DNA of 64,000 nucleotides from a virus. Its lineage: Duplodnaviria; Caudoviricetes. The translations under genes were made by a program, and so were the position numbers. The notes under the pieces were generated by a model, which saw only the letters and a list, made by a program, of their open reading frames with translations, was not told where the DNA came from and searched no databases. Location: IMG/VR virus record IMGVR_UViG_3300031555_004294, positions 64,001-128,000 of that record. One strand, 5' to 3'. Below, piece after piece: positions 3,803 through 46,109 of the stretch (its first letter is position 1; each line of letters opens with the position of its first letter).

Positions 3803-3954
3803 CATTAATATTTGCATAGAGACATTAATTCTATGACTGCTAGGCTTTTAAACCTAGATTAGACTATATCTTCTTGTACTTTCCTATTATACAATCATTT
3901 GACTGCAATATAGTCGTTGAACTTATCTTAAAAAATGTAATTTTGAAAAATTTG

Positions 3955-3966
3955 AATATATATTCT
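3955..3966 (+). promoter_or_regulatory. putative phage early promoter motif driving the intron cargo operon
   Basis: AATATATATTCT; the same motif precedes other non-structural units (36046 +, 44483 -, 49633 -, 55739 -). Confidence 0.6.
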
Positions 3967-4137
3967 AAATGTAGATAAAAGGTGCTACGAATTAGATAGT
4001 AATTCTATCCTTTAACAGAATTGGCAAATGCAGATTTGAACTCTGTGTAAAGTCCCTGTTATAGCAGTAGTTAAATGGAATTTGAGAAACAGCCTTTAAA
4101 AATTTTTATACTTTTACTAAAAGGAGTTAACTACAAA

Positions 4138-5019
4138 ATGGAAAAAACTATCTACAACGGAATGGAATTTAATTACTATCAGATCGCTGAAATCCTGCTT
4201 GGTAATATGGAAGGTATTGATACATCTAACTACACTGATCCTAAAATTTCTTATCAAGAAATGCAAAAAATTAGATTGCGACTGGTTGAAGATAAGAAAA
4301 TTAAAGATAGTTGGTATGAAAATTTTGGTTTAAAACAGATTAACGGAAAATGGATGTCTGTTAGAAATATTAAACCTTGTCCTATTTCAGAAGGAAATTG
4401 CGATAAAGGAATTCAAATTCTGTTAGGTCTTAAAAAAGGGTTAGACGTATCTATTTACGCAAAACCTGAGTTTAGCGGTTTACAGATGCAGGAAATTAGA
4501 TTAGGTCTTGAAAAAGGGTTAGACGTATCTATTTACGCAAAACCTGAATATAGTCACCATCAGATGGACAAAATTCTATTTGGTCTTGAAAGAGGGTTAG
4601 ATGTGTCTATTTACGCAAAACCTGAGTTTGACAGTTGCCAAATGAATCAAATCATATGTTTTCTTGTAAGAGGATTTGACATAAATAAATATCTTGATGC
4701 AGGAATTACTAGTTCAGATATGTTATATGAAGCTGGACGTGGTCTTAATGAAGGTATAGACTTATTCGATTATGCTAAGCAGTTAAATGATTCAACTCAG
4801 CTTTATGAGATTTTAATGGGTATTCGAAAAGGAATAGATGTATCTGTATATGCTAAACCTGAGTTTAGCACCGATCAGATGTGTCAAATCAGAATAGGCC
4901 TTGAAAGGGGATTAGACGTATCTGCATATGCAAAACCTGAACTTAAAGCTAGTGTGATGAAACAGATCAGATTCTGTCTTCAAAAAGGACTAGATATGAC
5001 CGTACATCTTAAAACTTAA
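4138..5019 (+). CDS. tandem 26-aa repeat protein (intron cargo gene 1)
   Basis: Repeats of KGLDVSIYAKPEF..QM.EIRLGLE with 78-nt DNA periodicity; AAGGAG RBS before ATG 4138. Confidence 0.8.
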   Translation: MEKTIYNGMEFNYYQIAEILLGNMEGIDTSNYTDPKISYQEMQKIRLRLVEDKKIKDSWYENFGLKQINGKWMSVRNIKPCPISEGNCDKGIQILLGLKKGLDVSIYAKPEFSGLQMQEIRLGLEKGLDVSIYAKPEYSHHQMDKILFGLERGLDVSIYAKPEFDSCQMNQIICFLVRGFDINKYLDAGITSSDMLYEAGRGLNEGIDLFDYAKQLNDSTQLYEILMGIRKGIDVSVYAKPEFSTDQMCQIRIGLERGLDVSAYAKPELKASVMKQIRFCLQKGLDMTVHLKT

Positions 5020-5050
5020 TTTTACTTGAACAAAAGGAGAACTAATAAAA

Positions 5051-5482
5051 ATGAATGTAACAACTTCAATCATTAACGAACACGGAAACCAACTCAAATT
5101 CACATCTATTCCTCGAAGATACACATCAGGAAATACAGAATATTGGAAGGAATATGATAAGAACGGTAATCTTATCTATGAAAGATTTTCCAATGACGTT
5201 GTAAGGACTCATCTCTATGATGCACAGGGTAAGTTTATCCTTACATACGATCCTTCAGAAATGGGAGCTATAGTAGCTATCCGTCTTTTCTATGATGAGT
5301 ATCGTAGTGTAATGGCAGAACTTGCTTTTGCATATGGAAGTACTCATACTATCGAATGGACTGATATAGCTCAGAGAAGAGCATTCCAGATCGGTATCAA
5401 TGGATATACTTTCATCTTTGATGAGAGAGATGTAGCTAAAGAAAAAACCTTCCAAGATTTTGTAAAAACAAAGGAGAACTAA
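5051..5482 (+). CDS. hypothetical protein, paralog of 5713-6150 (intron cargo)
   Basis: AAGGAG RBS; shares WxEYDxNGNLIxERFS and IGINxYTFIFDERD with 5713-6150. Confidence 0.8.
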   Translation: MNVTTSIINEHGNQLKFTSIPRRYTSGNTEYWKEYDKNGNLIYERFSNDVVRTHLYDAQGKFILTYDPSEMGAIVAIRLFYDEYRSVMAELAFAYGSTHTIEWTDIAQRRAFQIGINGYTFIFDERDVAKEKTFQDFVKTKEN

Positions 5483-5486
5483 CAAA

Positions 5487-5681
5487 ATGAAACTTCGTGA
5501 TGTACTCAATGTTATTAGTGGTGGCACTAATATCAGAATCTCTGTCAACTGCAATACTATCTTTTCTGGTCGAATGGCCGATGTAAAGGTAACTGATTGG
5601 ACCAATACTGTCGGTCCTTATCTGGATAATGAAGTCTACAGACTCAATACTTTCAATGGTTACATAACTATCGCTTGCTAA
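5487..5681 (+). CDS. small hypothetical protein (intron cargo)
   Basis: AAGGAG RBS, tight operon packing. Confidence 0.7.
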   Translation: MKLRDVLNVISGGTNIRISVNCNTIFSGRMADVKVTDWTNTVGPYLDNEVYRLNTFNGYITIAC

Positions 5682-5712
5682 AAATCACACAAGCAAAGGA
5701 GAATTAAACAAA

Positions 5713-6150
5713 ATGCTTGAATCTAAAACTATCATCGAAACTGAAAATGGCAATCGTCTTGAGTTTACGAATTTCACTCCTGACCAAATTAAATCCTATG
5801 GTAAGATCTGGAGGGAATATGATACCAATGGTAATCTTATTCATGAAAGATTTTCTACTGGAGTTATGAAAAACTATCTTTATGATGAGGATAATAAACT
5901 CATCGAAGAATATGATCCTATGGTAAAAGGAGCCATCAATGAAATTCGCATTTTCTATGACGAAGGTCATAAAATCAAGGCAGAACTTACTTTTGCCTTT
6001 GGTGGTACTACAATCATCGATTGGACTGATGTAACTCAAAGAGGACTCTATGAAATTGGTATCAACGCATATACTTTTATCTTTGATGAAAGAGATGCCG
6101 TTAGAGAAAGATTTTTCCAAGATTTTATAGTAACAAAGGAGACAAAATAA
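5713..6150 (+). CDS. hypothetical protein, paralog of 5051-5482 (intron cargo)
   Basis: AAGGAG RBS; similar to 5051-5482 along its length. Confidence 0.8.
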   Translation: MLESKTIIETENGNRLEFTNFTPDQIKSYGKIWREYDTNGNLIHERFSTGVMKNYLYDEDNKLIEEYDPMVKGAINEIRIFYDEGHKIKAELTFAFGGTTIIDWTDVTQRGLYEIGINAYTFIFDERDAVRERFFQDFIVTKETK

Positions 6151-6151
6151 A

Positions 6152-6595
6152 ATGTCATCTACTAATGCAGAATTCGAAATTGGAGAATTTGTAATAACAA
6201 CAGAAAAAATCCAAAATCACCATGGTTCTCTTGAAAAAGACATGGTTGTAGAAATAGTCGGTATAAACAAATCAAATCATACATACGATGTCTGTTTTGA
6301 TAGTGACGCTGGAAAGATTCTTGGAGTTCTTCGTGAAGTTAGTCATACAAGTCTCAAGAGATCTCCTATTCTTAACAGTTCTTATAGATTCACAGAATGT
6401 ACTAGAACTGCAGTAGAAAAAATAGAGCAAGCTATTTCCGTTATTTACGATCAAGATGCAAATGAAGAATGTATTAATGATCTTAAAAATGTCATTGAAC
6501 TTCTTTTTAAGGCTAGACACAATGTTCGTTTTACATTAACACCTGAGATGATCAAGAAATATGAAACACTCAACAAAGGAGAAATAACAAAATGA
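6152..6595 (+). CDS. hypothetical protein (intron cargo)
   Basis: RBS; C-terminal helix pair resembles 6592-6825. Confidence 0.7.
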   Translation: MSSTNAEFEIGEFVITTEKIQNHHGSLEKDMVVEIVGINKSNHTYDVCFDSDAGKILGVLREVSHTSLKRSPILNSSYRFTECTRTAVEKIEQAISVIYDQDANEECINDLKNVIELLFKARHNVRFTLTPEMIKKYETLNKGEITK

Positions 6596-6825
6596 AAATC
6601 AAAACAACAAATATCAATCAAGACAGCAATAAAATTGAAATCGATAACAACACCCAAAAATACATGGGTCATATCACATCTGCTATTGACAAGGCAGAAC
6701 AAGCTCTTTCGAGTATAACTTATACAAGTCATTCAGATGTAAACGAAGAGCCTATCAAGCTTATCAATAAAGCCATCGAACTTCTTGAAAAAGCTCAGGA
6801 TAGTACCATCTACAAACCTGTATAA
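6592..6825 (+). CDS. small hypothetical protein (intron cargo)
   Basis: ATGA overlap with the upstream gene, AAGGAG RBS. Confidence 0.7.
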   Translation: MKIKTTNINQDSNKIEIDNNTQKYMGHITSAIDKAEQALSSITYTSHSDVNEEPIKLINKAIELLEKAQDSTIYKPV

Positions 6826-6842
6826 AGGAGATACCACAACAT

Positions 6843-7061
6843 ATGGAAACTTTTATAATTTGCTTTAAACTTGACAATGCTTATAGGATTTTAGATCAAG
6901 TTGCCATTGTCTATGCAAGAAATCAAGACCATGCAATAAGCCTTCTTAATGCAATGTATGAGAAGTGTCAGTATGAATCAATAAAGTCCATTTACAGTGT
7001 TAGCAAATTAAGTGAAGATGGTAATCCTACTATTTTCACATATACCCCAGCTTTATATTAA
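6843..7061 (+). CDS. small hypothetical protein (intron cargo)
   Basis: AAGGAG RBS. Confidence 0.7.
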   Translation: METFIICFKLDNAYRILDQVAIVYARNQDHAISLLNAMYEKCQYESIKSIYSVSKLSEDGNPTIFTYTPALY

Positions 7062-7072
7062 GGAGAACGACT

Positions 7073-7813
7073 ATGGTTACAAAATACAATGTCATTAATT
7101 TCTTTGAAAAAAGAAAAGGTGACCCAACTGTTCCTCATACAATAGATGAGAAACATGAAAACATCATCTACAAAGATACAGGTAAAGTCCTTGCTACAAT
7201 CGATGAGTACATGGCTGCTATGAAAAAAGTACTTCATTGTGACTTTGAACTCATCTATGATGAACATCCTTCCTGTTTCTCAGTCATCCGTTGTAAGGAA
7301 TGTGGAACTGTAATCTTTGAACGTTATGATGAAGATTATGATCCAAATCTTTGCTGTCCTACTTGTGGGGGCTATAAAACTTACTTTGATTTCTGGACGA
7401 AGGAAGAAATTGATAGTGATGAGGAAAAACAAAAAGCTATCAAAAACTACGAAGAAATGCAACGTGAGTTGGATGAGTCCTATGCAAGACGACAGAAAAG
7501 AGGAGGTCTTTATGATTGGGAGATTTGGAAAAAGAGAATTGAGTTCAAGAAAACCCTTTGGAATATCTCTCTTGAATGTGATAATCTTTTCTATAGCAAA
7601 CCAAAACTTAAAGGTCTAAAACTCATTATCAAAATGAGTAAAAGAGATCCTGAATATGACGACATGTTTGTCTGGAAGAAGTCTACAAGAATTCCTCTAT
7701 CTTGGTATGCTTTCTACATACATTGTATTCTCCCATACTCTAAAACATGTCCAGAAGAATTACGCAAGTACCATTTCTGGCAGAAGAAACCTAAAGATCA
7801 GGAGGAAGGATAA
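7073..7813 (+). CDS. zinc-ribbon protein (intron cargo)
   Basis: CKECG and CPTCG pairs; AAGGAG RBS. Confidence 0.7.
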   Translation: MVTKYNVINFFEKRKGDPTVPHTIDEKHENIIYKDTGKVLATIDEYMAAMKKVLHCDFELIYDEHPSCFSVIRCKECGTVIFERYDEDYDPNLCCPTCGGYKTYFDFWTKEEIDSDEEKQKAIKNYEEMQRELDESYARRQKRGGLYDWEIWKKRIEFKKTLWNISLECDNLFYSKPKLKGLKLIIKMSKRDPEYDDMFVWKKSTRIPLSWYAFYIHCILPYSKTCPEELRKYHFWQKKPKDQEEG

Positions 7814-7816
7814 TTT

Positions 7817-8275
7817 ATGCACAACATCACTACAAGATACAAAGAGATTAAAGTTTGGTCTGCAAGTAAATTTAATCTCATCATCGCTATCGTTTTCATC
7901 GTTCTTACTGTACTGCTTGAAGCAGGAATTTTACACTGTATATTTACAGATAAAATTGGAAGTGCTGTTTTATTACAGTTTATGGTATCACCAATAACAA
8001 TTGTAGTTGCATCATGTGGAATTGGTACTTATAAACGAAGAAAAGAATTTACATTATACTTCAGCCAAATTGATGACGTTATTGATATCTCAAGACTTAA
8101 ATCTGAATATCATCTTTGCATGATTGATGGGTATGGTGTATTATTTATCAAAAACGATGATATACCTTCATATTCTGATTGGACTACTTTTGGTAGCTAT
8201 AATTCTACTTATAGAATTGAAGAAAAGTTTTTTAAAAATAGCACAATTTCTTTCATTACTAAAAAGGAGGACTAG
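7817..8275 (+). CDS. membrane protein with two TM segments (intron cargo)
   Basis: Two N-terminal hydrophobic stretches; GGAGG upstream. Confidence 0.7.
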   Translation: MHNITTRYKEIKVWSASKFNLIIAIVFIVLTVLLEAGILHCIFTDKIGSAVLLQFMVSPITIVVASCGIGTYKRRKEFTLYFSQIDDVIDISRLKSEYHLCMIDGYGVLFIKNDDIPSYSDWTTFGSYNSTYRIEEKFFKNSTISFITKKED

Positions 8276-8279
8276 AATA

Positions 8280-8450
8280 ATGAAAACCTATAGTGTAAGT
8301 ATACTTCATAAAACTGGTAGGGTTGTAAGACCTTATATCTTCAACGTTGAAGCATCAAATGAAAAAGATGCAGAGAATGAAGTCATGAGTAAAGTTAAAG
8401 CTCTTAATCTTAAAGGATCTTTAAGCGTTGATTTCGTTGAAGAAATTTAA
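8280..8450 (+). CDS. small hypothetical protein, 56 aa (intron cargo)
   Basis: AAGGAGG RBS before ATG 8280 (MKTYSV...), in frame with track ORF 8124-8450. Confidence 0.65.
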   Translation: MKTYSVSILHKTGRVVRPYIFNVEASNEKDAENEVMSKVKALNLKGSLSVDFVEEI

Positions 8451-8473
8451 CAAACAGAAAGGAAAATATCGCC

Positions 8474-8734
8474 ATGATGACTAAAACCCAATTTGCAAAA
8501 AAGATCGTTGAAGGATTTTGCAAAGATGTTGACTACAGAACTATTACTGATTGGTCTCCTTATATCTGTATGAGTAGTAGACTCGCAGTTGCATTAGAAT
8601 TCCTTGGATTGATTCCGAAGGATTCTTATACAGAATCTAGAGGAGGAATTGAAATGGTTTACTATGACAAGGAGAATAATGAGTCTGCAATTCTTTCAAC
8701 CAGAGAACTTCTTTCGTTGCTTCCTGATGAATAA
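8474..8734 (+). CDS. hypothetical protein (intron cargo)
   Basis: AAGGA RBS, 86 aa. Confidence 0.7.
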   Translation: MMTKTQFAKKIVEGFCKDVDYRTITDWSPYICMSSRLAVALEFLGLIPKDSYTESRGGIEMVYYDKENNESAILSTRELLSLLPDE

Positions 8735-8748
8735 TTAAAGTTCAAGAA

Positions 8749-8780
8749 AGTGTTAAGGGATCACTTTAAATATCCCTTCT
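8749..8780 (+). repeat. hairpin direct repeat copy 1 (copy 2 at 9159-9190)
   Basis: AGTGTTAAGGGATCACTTTAAATATCCCTTCT matches copy 2 at 30 of 32 positions. Confidence 0.85.
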
Positions 8781-8806
8781 CTAATTTATAAAACTAGAAA
8801 GGAAAT

Positions 8807-9145
8807 ATGTTAACCATGAAACGTGAATATATTGACAACGAAGAAATCATGAGTAACGATACTATTGAAATGGAGCATATCGTCACTGCAAAAAGGATTG
8901 AAAATAATATTGTGCTTTTTCAAAACGTAATTGCTAGTTTTTCAGGTGTAAAACTTACCGATGGTAAAGGCCCAAATGATCCAGATGAAGATGCATTTTG
9001 TGAGTTCAAATACAAAGATGATAAATTTTACTATAGAGATAGTCTCACAAAAGAGTTTGAAGAAGTTACATATGCTTTTTGGACGAATACTCTCTTATAC
9101 TATGTTTCTGAAGGACATAGTATTCATTATTTCAATGAAGACTAA
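8807..9145 (+). CDS. hypothetical protein (last intron cargo gene)
   Basis: AAGGA RBS; flanked by the duplicated hairpin. Confidence 0.7.
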   Translation: MLTMKREYIDNEEIMSNDTIEMEHIVTAKRIENNIVLFQNVIASFSGVKLTDGKGPNDPDEDAFCEFKYKDDKFYYRDSLTKEFEEVTYAFWTNTLLYYVSEGHSIHYFNED

Positions 9146-9158
9146 TTCATCTACATAC

Positions 9159-9196
9159 AGTGTTAAGGGATCACTATAAATGTCCCTTCTTTTTTT
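9159..9196 (+). terminator. terminator of the cargo operon, just inside the P6 arm
   Basis: AAGGGA...TCCCTT stem followed by CTTTTTTT. Confidence 0.7.
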
Positions 9197-9286
9197 ATAA
9201 TTTTTTAAGATAAGCTGCTGATTATACAAAATTTTGTATGTTCCAGCAATTAAGGAAGTTTATCAAGGTGATCAATAATAAATTTC

Positions 9287-13956: not shown

Positions 13957-14676
13957 ATGTATAACCCTGCTACTGATAGTAATCCTTTATTTCAAGTAGA
14001 CTTTGATTGGAATAAGAAACCAATTATTTGCATTAACATATCTGAGATGGTAAAACAAAAGTATAAGATACCAATGCAATATGAAACTATTAATATTGGC
14101 GGCAACTCAGACGACATGCATTTTCTATGTCGAAAAATTGACAGATACTTACTTCATATAGTTGAAGAAATTGCTGAATTTTTGAAAGAATTTAATGATA
14201 TAAATACAAAATTTCCTGATTTAAAAAATTACACAGAACATAAAGAATGTCTTATGGAGCTTATTGATGTAACAGCTTATATTACAAGTCTCCTAAGTCT
14301 ATTCTATATAGATCTCAATGGTTTAGAAAATACGAAAAACTTAGAAAATAGTTTTGAAAGAATTTTTAATGACGAAATTAGCAGTCTTAAAAATGAAGAT
14401 GTGAAAAATGTAGTAAATGAAAAGTTACTTAACATAGAAAGCATACTAATAAATGGAATTAGAAGAAATTTTCCAGAAAGAAAATGGCATAAAGATACTG
14501 ATAGAATTCTTTCAGTAAAAGAACTTTATGATCTTTATAAGAGTTGTATTCGTGAATGTACAAAAGCTCTTTATGTTGCAGTATTATTGTTTTTATACTT
14601 GACTGATATGAATGTTGACCTTTTTACACAGATGTTTCTTGACAAAAATGAAGAAGTATATTCTTTAAAAAAATAA
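13957..14676 (+). CDS. all-alpha NTP pyrophosphatase (dimeric dUTPase/MazG superfamily)
   Basis: EEIAE ... ELIDV acidic motif pair and a KWHK motif. Confidence 0.55.
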   Translation: MYNPATDSNPLFQVDFDWNKKPIICINISEMVKQKYKIPMQYETINIGGNSDDMHFLCRKIDRYLLHIVEEIAEFLKEFNDINTKFPDLKNYTEHKECLMELIDVTAYITSLLSLFYIDLNGLENTKNLENSFERIFNDEISSLKNEDVKNVVNEKLLNIESILINGIRRNFPERKWHKDTDRILSVKELYDLYKSCIRECTKALYVAVLLFLYLTDMNVDLFTQMFLDKNEEVYSLKK

Positions 14677-14764: not shown

Positions 14765-14841
14765 TGGGGTGTAGCCAAGTGGCCTAAGGCACGAGACTTT
14801 GACTCTCGCATTCGAATGTTCAAATCATTCCACCCCAGCCA
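14765..14841 (+). tRNA. tRNA-Gln(TTG)
   Basis: Cloverleaf, anticodon loop CT-TTG-AC, encoded CCA. Confidence 0.9.
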
Positions 14842-15055
14842 ACGGTATATTTGTTAGAAGCATCGACAAGGATATGAGTTGTTGGAGTACTATGAAGAGT
14901 AAATGCGAGATTATCGCAGTTAGCCACCTAAGCAATGCGTGCATGTAATGGATATTAGTTTCAAATATTGAGTTCTCCGCCAATTCCAGAGTATGACTGA
15001 CCTTCAACAGAAAACTGTAAAACAAAGAGGGAAATAAGACATATGAAAGAGGTTT

Positions 15056-15610
15056 ATGAAAATGAGCAAATCAATGCTATTTAATTGGGCATTCAAGCGA
15101 ATTTTAGGGTTAAGAGATGTTGGTGTATTCTTTAAGGTAATGAAGGAGCGCAAAGAAATTAAAACACAAGTTAATCTTAAAGGAGCCATAAGTTCTCCTA
15201 ATCATCTTAGCGAAATCATTGTTGGTCATGATGAACAGATTGATAAATGGATTGAGCCTATGGCTGCTGGAACTGAAAGTTGCCCTTATTGGGATTGTAC
15301 AAGACTGTTCTACGGCAAGGAGGCTAACTTTGACTGGGGCGAAAAGAATATGGAATATTGGCTTGGTATGAGACAAACAGTTCTAGCTCCTATCATCCCT
15401 ATTCCGATTTGTGCTTATGAGGAAGTCTATATTCTTGGTGAATCGGATAAGGCTTTTAGAGATTGCATGAAGAAGTATGGTAAAGCTCGTGCTTTCCATG
15501 ATCACGCTGAAGAGTTTGGTGCAAAGAAGATAATTGATAAAACAAATGTCTACTTTATGCAATGTGACATTTCTTATATGAAAGACCCTGTGTGGTCTAC
15601 TTGTGAGTGA
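15056..15610 (+). CDS. hypothetical protein inside the tRNA cluster
   Basis: 184 aa, GAGG RBS. Confidence 0.65.
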   Translation: MKMSKSMLFNWAFKRILGLRDVGVFFKVMKERKEIKTQVNLKGAISSPNHLSEIIVGHDEQIDKWIEPMAAGTESCPYWDCTRLFYGKEANFDWGEKNMEYWLGMRQTVLAPIIPIPICAYEEVYILGESDKAFRDCMKKYGKARAFHDHAEEFGAKKIIDKTNVYFMQCDISYMKDPVWSTCE

Positions 15611-15746
15611 TGTAGTCGCTATACAAATGACTATCTTTTTGTGAAATTATATTTCACACAAGTGAGCCTCTGTTGTGAACAGACTCCAAGGCTACGGCGA
15701 TTGGCCTCTCGAAAGAGTTAAAAATCGCCATTTATTTCAAATAATT

Positions 15747-15837
15747 GGAGAGATACCCAAGAGGTCGAAGGGGGCGGTCTACTAAACCGCTAGGGCATGT
15801 AAATGTTGCAAGAGTTCAAATCTCTTTCTCTCCGCCA
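15747..15837 (+). tRNA. tRNA-Ser(ACT)
   Basis: Long variable arm, G discriminator, stem GCGGT/ACCGC with loop CT-ACT-AA, CCA end. Confidence 0.85.
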
Positions 15838-15888
15838 AATATTTATTAAAGTTCTCAGTAGTTTTAACCTGTTGGGAACTTTATCTAT

Positions 15889-15963
15889 GCTGGTGTGGCT
15901 CAATGGCAGAGCAGCTGATTTGTAATCAGCAGGTTGATGGTTCGAATCCGTTCACCAGCTCCA
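15889..15963 (+). tRNA. tRNA-Thr(TGT)
   Basis: Cloverleaf, loop TT-TGT-AA, CCA end. Confidence 0.93.
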
Positions 15964-15966
15964 TTT

Positions 15967-16041
15967 CGGGATGTAGCGTATTGGTTACGCACTAGTTTTG
16001 GGAACTAGATCAAGTAGGTTCGATTCCTATCATTCCGACCA
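15967..16041 (+). tRNA. tRNA-Pro(TGG)
   Basis: CGGGATG acceptor, loop TT-TGG-GA, CCA end. Confidence 0.88.
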
Positions 16042-16129
16042 GAAATATTGATTAAAGTCTTGATATTTTAAATTACTAGACTTTAAATTTTTAAAAATCT
16101 GAGTAATAAATAATTATTCAGATTTTTAT

Positions 16130-16205
16130 TCCTCCTTAGCTCAGTCGGCAGAGCACCTGACTGTTAATCAGGGTGTCGCTGGTTCAAGCCCAGCAGGGGG
16201 AGCCA
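16130..16205 (+). tRNA. tRNA-Asn(GTT)
   Basis: Cloverleaf, loop CT-GTT-AA, GCCA end. Confidence 0.93.
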
Positions 16206-16247
16206 TATTAAAGTCTTGATAAATTAAATCATCAAGACTTTACATTT

Positions 16248-16323
16248 GCAGTAGTAACTCAATTGGTAGAGTGCTAGCCTTCCAAGCTGGATGTCGCGAG
16301 TTCGAGCCTCGTCTACTGCTCCA
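16248..16323 (+). tRNA. tRNA-Gly(TCC)
   Basis: Cloverleaf, loop CT-TCC-AA, TCCA end. Confidence 0.93.
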
Positions 16324-16467
16324 ACAAAAAATTTAAATCAAGTTTTAAATACATATTTTAAACTTGAAAAAAAAGGAAACGTATTAAAGTAAATTTTAAA
16401 TACATATTCTTATTCTGTAAAAAGAAAATGAATTACATGACAAATGTTAACACTTTCCTTTACATAT

Positions 16468-16554
16468 GGGGGTATGGCGGAACAGGTAGACGCAAGGGAC
16501 TTAAAATCCCTCGGTAGAGATACTGTGAGGATTCGAATTCCTCTACCCCCACCA
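16468..16554 (+). tRNA. tRNA-Leu(TAA)
   Basis: Long variable arm, loop CT-TAA-AA, ACCA end. Confidence 0.93.
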
Positions 16555-16607
16555 CTCGTTTAGGTAATTCTATCCTATAATAGAATTACCTAAACATTTT
16601 TATTTAT

Positions 16608-16684
16608 GGGACATTAGCTCAGTTGGTCAGAGCATTCGGCTCATAACCGAACGGTCCAAGGTTCGAGACCTTGATGTCCCACCA
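16608..16684 (+). tRNA. tRNA-CAT (probably Ile2, possibly elongator Met)
   Basis: Loop CT-CAT-AA; CGG/CCG anticodon stem resembles Firmicute tRNA-Ile2. Confidence 0.85.
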
Positions 16685-16689
16685 TATAT

Positions 16690-16765
16690 GATCCATTAGC
16701 TCAGATGGCAGAGCACATGACTTTTAATCATGGTGTCCGGAGTTCGACTCTCCGATGGATCACCA
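16690..16765 (+). tRNA. tRNA-Lys(TTT)
   Basis: Cloverleaf, loop CT-TTT-AA, ACCA end. Confidence 0.93.
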
Positions 16766-43248: not shown

Positions 43249-43358
43249 TTTTTAGAGTATAACCTCATAAACGGTTATACTCTAACTTTCTTAACCTTTA
43301 AAACACCCTTCCAACATTCCATTATAAAATAACAAAGGAAAGGAGGAAATAACATTTT

Positions 43359-43982
43359 ATGACTGTAAACAATAGTTACATCATAGATACTCAAACCACC
43401 AATAAATCATTCAAACGAATGTATAAGATACTCAAAACTATTGGAGTTAAGAATAATAAATTCTTCTTAAAACTTTATGATACTAGTTTGCAAGGAGTAA
43501 ATCCTAGAGATGAAGCCAATTTAACTAAAGAACAGAAGATGCGTATACTAGCAGAATGTAAACGTAATCCTTGGTATTTCTTTAGAGAAGTGGTCATTCT
43601 GAATGTTGCTGGTGGTAAAAAAAGATTTGAACTACATCGTGGTAACTTAGCTATTCTATGGTGTATGTTAAACAACTACAACTCAATTACTTTATTGCCT
43701 CGTCAGCATGGTAAAACGGTTTCTACAGTATGTGGTTTTGTTTGGTTATATACCTTTGGTACAGAAAACTCAAACATACTCTTTATGAATAAAGACTTTG
43801 GTGGTTCAAAGAACAACCTAAAGCTATTCAAAGATATCTATGACAATTTACCTTCCTATCTTAAAAATAGAAACAAAAATGACAAAGACAATGTAGAATT
43901 CATTGTCAATGCAACTACTGGTAACACTATTCGTGCAATTTCATCGGCTATTAGTGCAGCTGAAGCAGATAAGCGAGGACGT
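43359..43982 (+). CDS. terL: terminase large subunit, exon 1
   Basis: ECKRNPWYFFREV and Walker A LPRQHGKT; ends DKRGR at the intron boundary; AACA-N6-TA at 43313-43324. Confidence 0.9.
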
Positions 43983-44669
43983 AAATTTAACTGCGTTTCA
44001 ATAGCATAAACTATTGTCAAAAATTTCTTAATTGCTGGGAACATACAAAAAATTTGTACTATCAGCAGTCATTTATAAAAAAAAAAAGAAAGCCTTATAG
44101 AGACTTTCTTTTTTGTATGGAAATACTTTATTCTGTAACTTCCTCAACAGTTGTTTCTTCTGTAAGAGTATCAGGTTTAATTTCTACCAACTCTTCTTCA
44201 GAAGTAACTTCCTCAGTTACAGTTCCTTCATCGTTATTTTCAGTTTCAGCATTTGCTACATCAGATTGGATTTCCTCCAAGATGTTAGCAACCTGTTCCT
44301 TGAGCTTTGCCTTCTTCTTCTTTCTGATGTGGCAAACAGTACCTACTGCTCCTGCAACCAAAGCAACAGCTCCTACTCCAATAGCGATTACACCAATAGT
44401 CTTTCCGTTCATTTTTTAGTTCTCCTTTTTAAATAAAAATTTTTGTTAGAATAATTTATGTATTTCCTTCTAACTCACAATAAGAATATATATTTGAAAA
44501 GTTGAACTTTACGATTTTTATAAATGATTCAACGACTATATATTACATTCAGAATTTGAATGGAAATTGAAATGATCCTTAACACTAGGATTTTGATATA
44601 GTCTCAACTTCTATGGAAACATAGAGAATATTTTACATGAACTAATGACTCATGTATCAAGATTTTTTG
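43983..44669 (+). mobile_element. group I intron (687 nt) in terminase, with an antisense gene in the P6 loop
   Basis: Exon end GGACGU pairs with IGS GCGUUU. P AAUUGCUGGGAA (44030-44041), Q AUCAGCAG (44061-44068), R UUCAACGACUAUA (44528-44540), S GAUAUAGUCU (44595-44604), P9 CUAUG-GAAA-CAUAG, terminal G 44669. Join restores RGR-GLTSPLIYYDE. Confidence 0.93.
44128..44412 (-). CDS. small single-pass membrane protein (terminase intron cargo)
   Basis: AAGGAG RBS, N-terminal TM, basic patch, acidic tail; early-type motif at 44483-44494 and hairpin at about 44082-44114. Confidence 0.8.
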   Translation of the reverse strand: MNGKTIGVIAIGVGAVALVAGAVGTVCHIRKKKKAKLKEQVANILEEIQSDVANAETENNDEGTVTEEVTSEEELVEIKPDTLTEETTVEEVTE

Positions 44670-46109
44670 GGTTTAACCTCACCTCTTATCTACTACGATG
44701 AATTTGCTTTCTTAAAGTTTAACAAAATCCTTTGGCAAGCAGCTGCACCTGCACAGGGTCAGGCAAGAGAAGAAGCTCGTCGAAATAAATCATTCTACTC
44801 AGCAACTATAACTACTACACCAAACAATATAGATAACAATCCTGAATCAGAAGGAACTTGGTGTAAGTCAGAAATGGTTGATAAAGCATGTCGCTTTGAT
44901 GAAGCCATGTATGACTGGACTAGAGAAGAAGTTCTTGAATGTCTGGCTAAGAAATCTGATAACGACTTTTTATACATTGAGTTTTCTTACAAACAACTTG
45001 GTCGTGATGAAGTATGGTATAAAGAAAACTGTCGTGCATTAAATAACGACCTTCTTAAAATCAAACGTGAAATTCTTCTTGAATGGACAAAAGCATCTGA
45101 CGTATCAGTATTCTCTGAGGAACAGTTAGTTGCAATAGAAAAGCATTTGAAAGAACCAGTATCTAAATTAGTCATTGACAGATATTGGTCTATTGATCTT
45201 TATAGAACAGACTTTGATTATCTTAAACCTTGGGTAATTTCTTGTGACGTTGGTACTGGCCTTTCGCAAGACGCTTCTGCTATAACTATCTTCCATCCTA
45301 TAACATTTGAAATCATAGGTGAATTTAGAGAGAATAAAATAGATACAGAAGACTACAAGCATTTACTTGAGAAGTTGGTTGGCTTCTGGTTCCGTAATTC
45401 ATTGCTTACCATAGAGAACAACTCTATTGGTATAACGATCATACAGTACTTAATGCGAACAGTTGTAGCTAAGAACTTGTACTATGAATACAAGGATCGA
45501 AAAGGTACTAAGATAGAGAAATCTAAGACTGAGTTAACACATGTTAGTAAAAAAGAAAAGGTACAAGTTTATGGTATTTCAACTACAAGTAATTCCTCTG
45601 GTAGTGGTAGCCGTGACTTAATGTTAGAAATTTTGAACGATACTATAAACACACAACCTGAATTATTAGCAACACCCAACCTATTCTCGGATATTAAGGG
45701 ATTAGAGAGAGATAATAAAGGAAAGATCGGCCATGGTCTTGGTCTCCACGACGACTCTCTCTTTTCTTATTTAGTTGGACGTTACACTCTAGCTTATGGT
45801 ACTAACTTAGCTCGTTTCCAAATGCCAGTAGATGGTAAAGAACCTGCAGATAGAAAGGCTAGTATGGCACGTATGTCACATAATTTACAAGAAGCCAATA
45901 GACTATCAGTTAGACCTGGTGCTACTAAAGCATTCGGTTATAATGGATTAGCAAATCAAGAAATTGAACAAGCTAGCTACTTAGAATTAAGAAAACAAAT
46001 AGATGCTGGTGGTAGAATTGGTGTTTATACTAGTATAAGTCAAATTGAGGAATTAGATAAGAAAAGTAAATACCGACTATTAAGTTCTGACATTTGGGAT
46101 AACAAATAA
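44670..46109 (+). CDS. terL: terminase large subunit, exon 2 (spliced product 687 aa)
   Basis: Walker B IYYDEFAF, motif III TTTP, nuclease motifs CDVGTG..QDAS, IENNSIG and HDDSL. Confidence 0.9.
   Translation, partial: GLTSPLIYYDEFAFLKFNKILWQAAAPAQGQAREEARRNKSFYSATITTTPNNIDNNPESEGTWCKSEMVDKACRFDEAMYDWTREEVLECLAKKSDNDFLYIEFSYKQLGRDEVWYKENCRALNNDLLKIKREILLEWTKASDVSVFSEEQLVAIEKHLKEPVSKLVIDRYWSIDLYRTDFDYLKPWVISCDVGTGLSQDASAITIFHPITFEIIGEFRENKIDTEDYKHLLEKLVGFWFRNSLLTIENNSIGITIIQYLMRTVVAKNLYYEYKDRKGTKIEKSKTELTHVSKKEKVQVYGISTTSNSSGSGSRDLMLEILNDTINTQPELLATPNLFSDIKGLERDNKGKIGHGLGLHDDSLFSYLVGRYTLAYGTNLARFQMPVDGKEPADRKASMARMSHNLQEANRLSVRPGATKAFGYNGLANQEIEQASYLELRKQIDAGGRIGVYTSISQIEELDKKSKYRLLSSDIWDNK

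Follow-up and report, generated by a model that had tools for sequence, protein, structure and literature searches.

How does a small gene come to lie, read backwards, inside the late terminase gene of a giant phage, and how could both genes function there? The question arises in a 64,000-nt stretch of viral DNA (the window), which corresponds to positions 14162–78161, minus strand, of one viral contig that is 156,854 bp long (G+C content 32%). In the window, the large terminase gene is interrupted at positions 43983–44669, and the interrupting 687 nt contain a 94-codon open reading frame (ORF) on the opposite strand. Our analysis of the locus and its relatives makes it probable that this sequence is a self-splicing group I intron holding an early minus-strand cassette in its P6 loop, the frame of the cassette being conserved and its contents exchangeable.

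By tblastn, the terminase is nearest to those of the AR9/PBS1 group of giant phages (44% identity with BpSp, 43% with Goe21 and 43% with AR9), which encode two multisubunit RNA polymerases (RNAPs). Several metagenome assemblies of faeces type contain near-identical copies of the locus. On these sequence comparisons, the genome is assigned to an AR9/PBS1-related giant phage of animal faeces metagenomes.

A predicted group I intron separates the terminase exons

Exon 1 is recognised by PHROG 32359, terminase large subunit, with an E value of 6e-69 and all 210 profile positions covered, and the tblastn matches of exon 2 are AR9-group terminases. In BLASTP, exon 1 aligns with residues 2–203 of BpSp TerL, and exon 2 aligns from residue 204 onward (E 7e-101). 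The BpSp terminase is uninterrupted and reads ADKLGRGLTIPIIWYDELAFL across the junction site, and the terminase of an IMG/VR relative, L130 (49% identical), is also uninterrupted there. Because the BpSp sequence, the BLASTP residue ranges and L130 agree, the intron can be placed between two codons, Arg208 and Gly209, just 5′ of Walker B, with a splice junction that joins ...CGAGGACGT to GGTTTAACC. Removal of the intron restores the conserved reading frame (BpSp 203/204; L130). An earlier reading of the window from its letters (the sequence-only reading) had proposed a group I intron with these ends and this junction, and the two alignments bear it out. The site is a conserved one, of a kind that mobile introns favour. 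Furthermore, among four metagenome DNA runs, two contain a joint 43945>44703 of low confidence, at 85% likeness, a hint that relatives lacking the intron exist; a variant of the terminase intron with a different cargo was found in none of the four.

The intron has the anatomy of a phage group I ribozyme (Table 1). A minimum-free-energy fold of a 706-nt stretch (z = −7.6) recovers P1, P2, P4, P5, P6, P7, P7.1, P8, P9 and P9.1. P3, which is pseudoknotted with P7 and was missed by the fold, can be paired by hand with six Watson-Crick pairs. Specifically, P1 places the U-G pair typical of group I introns at the 5′ splice site, as judged by sequence and folds, the last nucleotide of the intron is the expected G, and the catalytic core from P3 to P9, including P7 and J8/7, is complete. 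The 34 nt from P7 to P9 (44595–44628) are 100% identical to cores in Enterococcus, Staphylococcus and AR9/PBS1 phages, some of which are annotated Intron_gpI in the cultured phages. In addition, AATTGCTGG...ATCAGCAG is the conserved P4/P5 word in more than 100 IMG/VR introns of the same type. On these sequence features, 43983–44669 is a predicted self-splicing group I intron in the late terminase gene.

A second intron of this kind interrupts the RNAP beta gene of the same window. Its R element, at 3921–3909 on the minus strand, is identical to the R element TTCAACGACTATA at 44528–44540 of the terminase intron. The terminase P4/P5 string (44030–44068) has a single occurrence; in its counterpart in the RNAP intron, at about 9252–9213 (minus), one G is missing and a few bases are substituted. 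The near-match of both elements, which the sequence-only reading had pointed out, is thus correct. The flanking exons match PHROG RNA polymerase beta (upstream E 1e-118, downstream E 1e-53), and they went unrecognised in Pfam. The two halves of the RNAP intron lie 5.3 kb apart, with 11–12 plus-strand ORFs between them.

The P6 loop encloses a predicted antisense transcription unit

The P6 strands of the terminase intron are exact reverse complements over 13 bp (duplex −9.7 kcal/mol) and enclose a 433-nt insert (44082–44514), on whose minus strand a promoter, a Shine-Dalgarno sequence, an ORF and a terminator follow in order. The promoter word AAATATATATTCT agrees at 12 of 13 positions with the early consensus of the AR9 virion RNAP, AAATATATATTAT-(6N)-G (PMC5312081), and by its sequence, with 6N-G and a gene downstream, it is a predicted AR9-type early promoter. 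Such words number four in the window, with 0.46 expected, and two of the four are in the two intron P6 loops. The perfect 13-bp inverted repeat, set exactly between P4′ and R, the z score of the fold and the enrichment of the early word show that the arrangement is beyond chance.

The 94-aa protein has a predicted transmembrane helix at residues ~5–27, with a hydropathy of 2.38 across 19 residues. After it come a basic cluster, RKKKKAKLK, and a long acidic Thr/Glu-rich tail. Codon log-odds of the minus-strand ORF are +0.81 bits per codon, compared with 0.54 ± 0.21 for coding chunks of the genome and −0.29 ± 0.15 for antisense chunks. Overlapping plus-strand ORFs were rejected as genes, since their codon log-odds of −0.01 and −0.46 mark them as shadows. 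Pfam and PHROG searches detected neither a nuclease nor any other family in the 94-aa protein, and a nuclease motif is absent from both strands. The element therefore does not belong with the mobile introns that carry a homing endonuclease (LAGLIDADG, GIY-YIG, HNH or similar), as its one credible ORF is non-nuclease. The form of the protein and its early-type promoter lead us to guess that it perhaps has a host-envelope or exclusion function.

The unit ends in a hairpin of −13.6 kcal/mol on the minus strand, and a terminator scan calls the minus strand only. As judged from sequence, the insert thus has what defines a moron-like autonomous unit, namely its own promoter, a ribosome site with an ORF and a terminator, all on one strand. 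The sequence-only reading had described just such a unit, with an early motif, a ribosome-binding site, a 94-aa membrane protein, a terminator and no endonuclease, and each part was found where it had been placed.

The insert might instead be a functionless, decaying remnant, either of an ancestral homing-endonuclease unit in P6 or of a random insertion, with an ORF that arose by chance. Such an origin would suit an orphan protein and the empty frames of some relatives described below, and promoter-like words arise easily in AT-rich sequence. We consider it very unlikely, because promoter word, 6N-G, leader, Shine-Dalgarno sequence, ATG, stop and terminator are ordered on the same strand (at least eight independent elements), the codon log-odds exceed the genome coding mean, and nuclease motifs are untraceable on both strands.

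Read in the sense direction, the same hairpin has −10.5 kcal/mol and is followed by U6 only. If late transcription stopped at this bidirectional hairpin, exon 1 plus the intron's 5′ half and the 3′ half plus exon 2 might be separate RNAs, spliced in trans through the P6 stem; or splicing might not occur, giving two polypeptides of 216 aa and 485 aa, the latter from an in-frame ATG at 44652. The sense hairpin with its U6 and the position of the ATG, 18 nt 5′ of exon 2, would accord with this scheme. Group I introns are also known to tolerate splitting in the P6 loop, as in the trans-splicing split T4 td intron. Neither a late-promoter word nor a Shine-Dalgarno sequence was found 5′ of the 3′ half or of ATG 44652, however, and a split into two polypeptides would leave Walker A and Walker B on different chains. 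Cis splicing is favoured by the completeness and conservation of the ribozyme core, and the 433-nt insert is smaller than the ORF inserts of well-studied cis-splicing phage introns. Splicing in trans or a split terminase is accordingly the most improbable of the explanations considered here.

Table 1. Features of the interrupted terminase gene, its intron and the antisense unit (window coordinates)
Feature	Position	Strand	Remarks
Late-promoter-like word AACA-6N-TA	43313..43324	+	35 nt 5′ of terminase start codon; read from sequence
Large terminase exon 1	43359..43982	+	208 codons; Walker A LPRQHGKT; C-terminal ...ADKRGR
Group I intron (predicted)	43983..44669	+	687 nt; phage IA-like type; Rfam RF00028 partial match and fold
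Internal guide and P1	43989..43998	+	GCGTTT (43993-43998) with exon end GGACGT (43977-43982)
Possible P10	43989-43992	+	AACT; can pair with exon-2 start GGTT
P2 hairpin	43999..44016	+	CAATAG / CTATTG
P3	44022-44027 / 44563-44568	+	paired by hand
J3/4	in 44022..44067	+	between P3 5′ strand and P4
P4	44033-44038 / 44062-44067	+	from fold
P5	44044-44049 / 44053-44058	+	from fold
P6 5′ strand	44069..44081	+	TCATTTATAAAAA
Terminator	44071..44114	-	14-pair hairpin 44114-44082, then T11 running into P6 strand
94-codon ORF	44412-44128	-	ATG at 44412; stop ends at 44128
Shine-Dalgarno sequence	44425-44422	-	GGAG; 9 nt 5′ of ATG
Early-promoter word	44495-44483	-	AAATATATATTCT; then 6 nt TATTGT and predicted start G at 44476
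P6 3′ strand	44515..44527	+	TTTTTATAAATGA
R element / J6-7, P7 5′ strand	44528..; P7 44534-44541	+	
P7.1 hairpin	44546-44562	+	
P8 hairpin	44574-44592	+	
P7 3′ strand and J8/7	P7 3′ strand 44596-44603	+	
P9	44609-44626	+	GAAA loop
P9.1	44634-44656	+	
Terminal G of intron	44669	+	position set by alignment to intron-less terminases
Large terminase exon 2	44670..46109	+	479 codons; begins GLTSPLIYYDEFAFL (Walker B)

The P6 frame is conserved in related introns and its contents vary

Relatives were found by an IMG/VR search with the shared P4/P5 word, and a second scan looked for an antisense early word beside R. The closest comparison is an IMG/VR contig, L131, whose terminase has an intron at the same splice site, with exons 76–80% and intron cores 84–85% identical to those of the window. 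The P6 element of L131 is ~50% identical to that of the window, that is, unrelated. Its 303-nt insert has a different perfect 13-bp stem, a consensus early word and a hairpin/T10 terminator, and contains no ORF of at least 30 codons. Nor did the insert give a tRNA or Rfam match, and its fold is weak, with a z of only −2.0. Within it (L131:2860-3100) are two early-promoter-like words and a region of ~100 nt held in a TGTAGCT/AGCTACA stem.

A 319,626-bp relative, G001, has at least 16 group I cores. The insert of its RNAP intron is 2.0 kb long and contains five antisense genes, one of them homologous by eye to a gene in the 12-gene insert of the window's RNAP intron. Two other introns each carry one antisense Myb-repeat protein, of 348 aa and 397 aa. 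The 348-aa protein (L132:790-1836) matches Pfam Myb_DNA-binding at 4e-25, and the 397-aa protein (L149; G001:C1, intron ~282219) is its paralogue by eye; both are arrays of Myb/SANT-like DNA-binding repeats, an unusual type for a phage early gene. One G001 terminase intron, at a different site, carries a 105-aa membrane protein in antisense, its tail acidic, and the intron of L147b holds an antisense ORF-less unit. G001 also has ordinary compact introns and introns with sense-strand nuclease genes.

The second scan added, in contigs of other uncultured AR9-like phages, a 96-aa protein 53% identical to the 105-aa cargo of G001, a 51-aa ORF, an ORF-less unit in five contigs, and ORFs of 116–118 aa in AR9-type introns of contigs of ~250 kb. 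The 94-aa protein of the window has no significant similarity to the terminase-intron membrane proteins of G001 and L159. Across this phage and its IMG/VR relatives, the contents of the cassette thus range from no ORF up to 12 genes.

The ends of the cassette are shared. All eight aligned antisense elements have a perfect P6 stem of 11–15 bp whose sequence is different each time, which amounts to covariation. In each, a spacer of 12–19 nt is followed by the word NNNTATATATT(A/C)T, six bases and a purine, and at the far end a hairpin with T6–T11 adjoins or overlaps the P6 5′ strand. The promoter-side and terminator-side ends align across the eight, which have a TAAAAA-CGTAA word in common and terminators close to identical although their cargo differs. 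The frame is thus homologous, whereas its contents vary. At least eight introns therefore form a family defined by a perfect long stem, homologous ends and variable contents. A contrast sample of ~28 other introns with the same core and P6 inserts has sense nuclease-sized ORFs or no clear ORF. Apparent ORFs in antisense within the L021 and L026 P6 inserts proved to be parsing artefacts or shadows of sense nuclease genes.

In a rough tree of intron cores, the cassette introns fall into two groups, terminase-like and RNAP-like, which share their 5′ halves more than their 3′ halves. The pattern would fit an exchange of P6 regions from one intron to another by way of the conserved core words that flank them, as inferred from short alignments only.

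The sequence-only reading had taken the terminase and RNAP introns, with identical polarity and cargo of different size, as a sign of a family of cargo-carrying introns. The family stands, with eight aligned frames of varying contents; a universal polarity does not, given an ORF-less unit in sense orientation at the G001 locus L145 and the sense nuclease genes of related introns. It had also proposed a tabulation of P6 contents in relatives, with constant cargo as an argument against the idea. In the tabulated introns cargo varies (no ORF in L131; five genes in the G001 RNAP intron and 12 in that of the window), so that homologous introns cannot be said never to vary in cargo.

Several observations weigh against a protein-coding cassette in a self-splicing intron. 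First, Rfam RF00028 aligns with 44530–44626 only, the 3′ half, at 30.3 bits (E 1e-5), which falls below the Rfam gathering score of 50 bits; at the gathering threshold, Rfam returns only tRNAs and no intron match. The score is low because the model cannot bridge the 433-nt P6 insert, and two compact paralogous introns elsewhere in the genome reach 55–57 bits. Second, the 94-aa protein is an orphan apart from identical copies: no homologue was found in phage records, a search of 5.8 billion proteins returned only itself, the genome holds no paralogue, and ESM Atlas gave nothing informative (predicted local distance difference test, pLDDT, 0.43). The lack of a homologue leaves no evolutionary test of its being made. 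Third, the hairpin with six U in the sense direction could hinder transcription of the terminase. Fourth, in L131, G001 L147b and the L177 group, promoter and terminator persist although an ORF is missing, so that the conserved thing may be transcription or a small RNA and not protein cargo. Finally, the sense-oriented L145 unit has a strong sense terminator, which weakens the argument that avoidance of a terminator dictates orientation.

The ORF-less frames in particular raise the alternative that what is conserved is an antisense transcription unit with a regulatory role, its ORF being incidental. Over ~400 nt, the early RNA would be fully complementary to the late pre-mRNA or to the excised intron, as follows directly from the geometry, so the excised intron could silence the early gene in the late phase of infection. 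The early RNA could, alternatively, act on the terminase pre-mRNA, by modulating its folding, its splicing or its cleavage by RNase III, and thereby time terminase production. The persistence of promoter and terminator frames in L131, G001 L147b and the L177 group, and the conservation of frame ends but not of contents, are as this alternative would have it. Most frames, however, hold ORFs that are preceded by a ribosome-binding site and have coding-like statistics, one cargo family is kept at 53% identity between phages, and contents of as many as 12 genes are difficult to account for by regulation alone. Moreover, the antisense RNA would stop short of the catalytic core and the exons. We therefore regard a purely regulatory unit as unlikely.

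A proposed division of the locus by time and strand

The anatomy, exon junction, stem covariation, frame homology, content turnover and coding-like codon usage were computed here; splicing, early transcription, timing and the role of the protein we infer. In the cassette reading, the injected virion RNAP would start early in infection at the AR9-type promoter in the P6 loop (predicted 44476, minus), make an mRNA of ~400 nt for the 94-aa single-pass membrane protein and stop at the hairpin/T11 terminator, just short of the intron core. Late in infection, transcription of the terminase would begin at its own late promoter and run on across the intron, the insert being non-coding on that strand. 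The P6 stem of 13–14 bp would close over the insert, the core would fold, and the intron would excise itself and join ...KRGR to GLTSPLIYYDE..., giving a terminase of 687 aa. Two genes on one stretch of DNA would thus be separated by time and strand, and the backwards orientation would keep a ribosome site, an ORF and a strong terminator off the terminase pre-mRNA.

The late promoter is suggested by the word at 43313–43324, which agrees with the AR9 late consensus AACA-(6N)-TA/G (PMC5312081), a short motif and hence weak evidence. The same word, CAACATT.CATTA, also lies 5′ of two other genes, and the terminator scan places the terminator of the upstream gene ahead of the terminase gene.

Because the frame ends are conserved across genes and phages and the genes between them are exchangeable, the intron would be a safe harbour for accessory early genes. 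It is probably a vehicle for moron-like accessory early genes inside an essential gene. A further step, unlikely in our judgement, would make the P6 frame an exchange platform, with the core words ATCAGCAG and TTCAACGACTA as homology arms between introns and the conserved exons as arms between co-infecting phages, and would let the excised intron, a perfect antisense of the cargo mRNA, shut the early gene off when late transcription begins. If this were true, the intron would combine a device for shuttling genes with a temporal switch built into it.

To our knowledge, phage group I introns are usually viewed as selfish elements with a homing nuclease as sole passenger. Here, the passenger slot appears as a reusable opposite-strand frame for early genes in essential late genes (terminase and virion RNAP), with cargo that includes membrane proteins, DNA-binding repeat proteins and whole gene arrays. 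If the cassette reading is correct, giant phages would have in introns a route for acquiring, sheltering and exchanging accessory genes, and such introns would be missed by standard annotation, which reports two fragments of a gene and a small gene unrelated to them. It would also be a design from nature by which a gene with timing of its own is nested in another gene without disturbing it.

Comparison with known systems

The locus combines known kinds of element: intron-borne genes, morons and antisense intron ORFs. Our literature search found no report of antisense non-nuclease units running from promoter to terminator in phage introns. The T4 td, nrdB and nrdD (sunY) introns have ORFs of hundreds of nucleotides in peripheral loops (P6 in td and nrdB), with their own promoters. 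Those introns, whose endonucleases are the subject of a review (PMC2988022), likewise show that phage group I introns tolerate loop ORFs, but their ORFs are sense-strand homing endonucleases. Outside phages, the giant group I intron ND5-717 of hexacoral mitochondria holds several ordinary mitochondrial genes in a loop. It resembles the present introns in a peripheral loop with ordinary non-nuclease genes, few to many. It differs as an organelle intron with sense genes in P8 and no dedicated promoter/terminator frame (PMC6545197).

The nearest parallel is AR9 g190, an HNH gene in the P6 loop of the intron of the late virion-RNAP beta gene (g189), with a mapped early promoter, AAATATATATTAT-6N-purine, adjoining the P6 strand (PMC5312081). 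The phage group, the intron type, a P6 gene in a late-gene intron and the early promoter are common to both. AR9 g190 is a sense-strand HNH homing endonuclease without its own terminator, whereas the present gene is antisense, encodes a non-nuclease membrane protein and has a strong terminator. A functional early promoter in the P6 loop of an AR9 late-gene intron makes the early half of the proposed mechanism plausible.

In mycobacteriophage LittleE, a capsid-gene intron splices efficiently, as seen by RT-PCR (reverse transcription PCR), with a bottom-strand ORF, gp14 (PMC3706429), so antisense cargo is compatible with efficient splicing. LittleE shares with the present case an intron in a phage structural gene and an antisense ORF. 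Its cargo is a putative homing endonuclease, however, and neither an early-promoter/terminator frame nor variable non-nuclease contents are described for it. The L2066 introns of nuclear ribosomal DNA are similar in that the inserted gene may be on either strand, but they belong to eukaryotic ribosomal DNA and expression machinery, and their cargo is always a nuclease (PMC9548176).

Phage morons, such as the opposite-strand units of phiKZ (PMC10914365), are likewise autonomous promoter-gene-terminator units opposite to late genes. They sit between genes, whereas the present unit lies in the ribozyme loop of an essential gene and shares its frame ends with other introns. IStrons, in which a group I intron is joined to an IS605-family element (bioRxiv 10.1101/2023.11.20.567912), also have mobile cargo that is not of the endonuclease type and is made harmless by splicing; their cargo is a transposon at the 3′ terminus of that intron, and here it is a phage early-gene unit in P6.

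Further observations on the introns and their surroundings

The RNAP-beta intron (window 3803–9286, minus) and several compact relatives (L133/L149) apparently lack the P8 hairpin, with ~7 nt between P3′ and J8/7. The terminator of the RNAP-beta intron is nearly identical to that of a different intron, in G001, with a Myb-repeat gene. Many unrelated metagenome contigs match 44079–44115 (terminator hairpin) or 44594–44628 (P7–P9 core) of the terminase intron alone; these short modules thus recur in other phage DNA from the same samples.

The G001 terminase (L141, G001:C1:2200-7000, minus) has no intron at the site used in the window and has two others. One, right after DEFAFL, holds a 322-aa sense ORF (L141:2052-3020), and the other, after GLERDNKG, holds the antisense 105-aa membrane protein (L141:458-775). 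Close relatives can thus have their introns at different places in one gene. The 322-aa ORF is homologous to an ORF at L003:2921-3928; these 322–335-aa sense-strand ORFs have zinc-ribbon-like CxxC pairs and lie in the 5′ part of their introns, outside P6, in two different host genes. They probably encode a mobile nuclease of this phage group.

The L145 unit of G001 (G001:C1:169500-174400) lies in P6 on the sense strand, ~200 nt 5′ of R at ~4500. It comprises an early-promoter-like word, ~130 nt and a strong hairpin/T9 terminator directly 5′ of R, and is possibly a gene for a small RNA; to find a sense terminator within an intron was unexpected.

An intergenic early cassette was seen at L003 ~1705-2125 (G000:C1 ~116705-117125), with an early word, a 71-aa ORF (L003:1808-2023) and a hairpin/T11. 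On either side of it stands a late-promoter-like word, CAACATTACATTA, in two identical, divergent copies. A 13-bp inverted repeat at this cassette was rejected as a stem borne by the cassette, since it consists of the two divergent late-promoter-like words. Elsewhere in the window, a cluster of eight tRNA genes occupies 14765–16762 on the plus strand.

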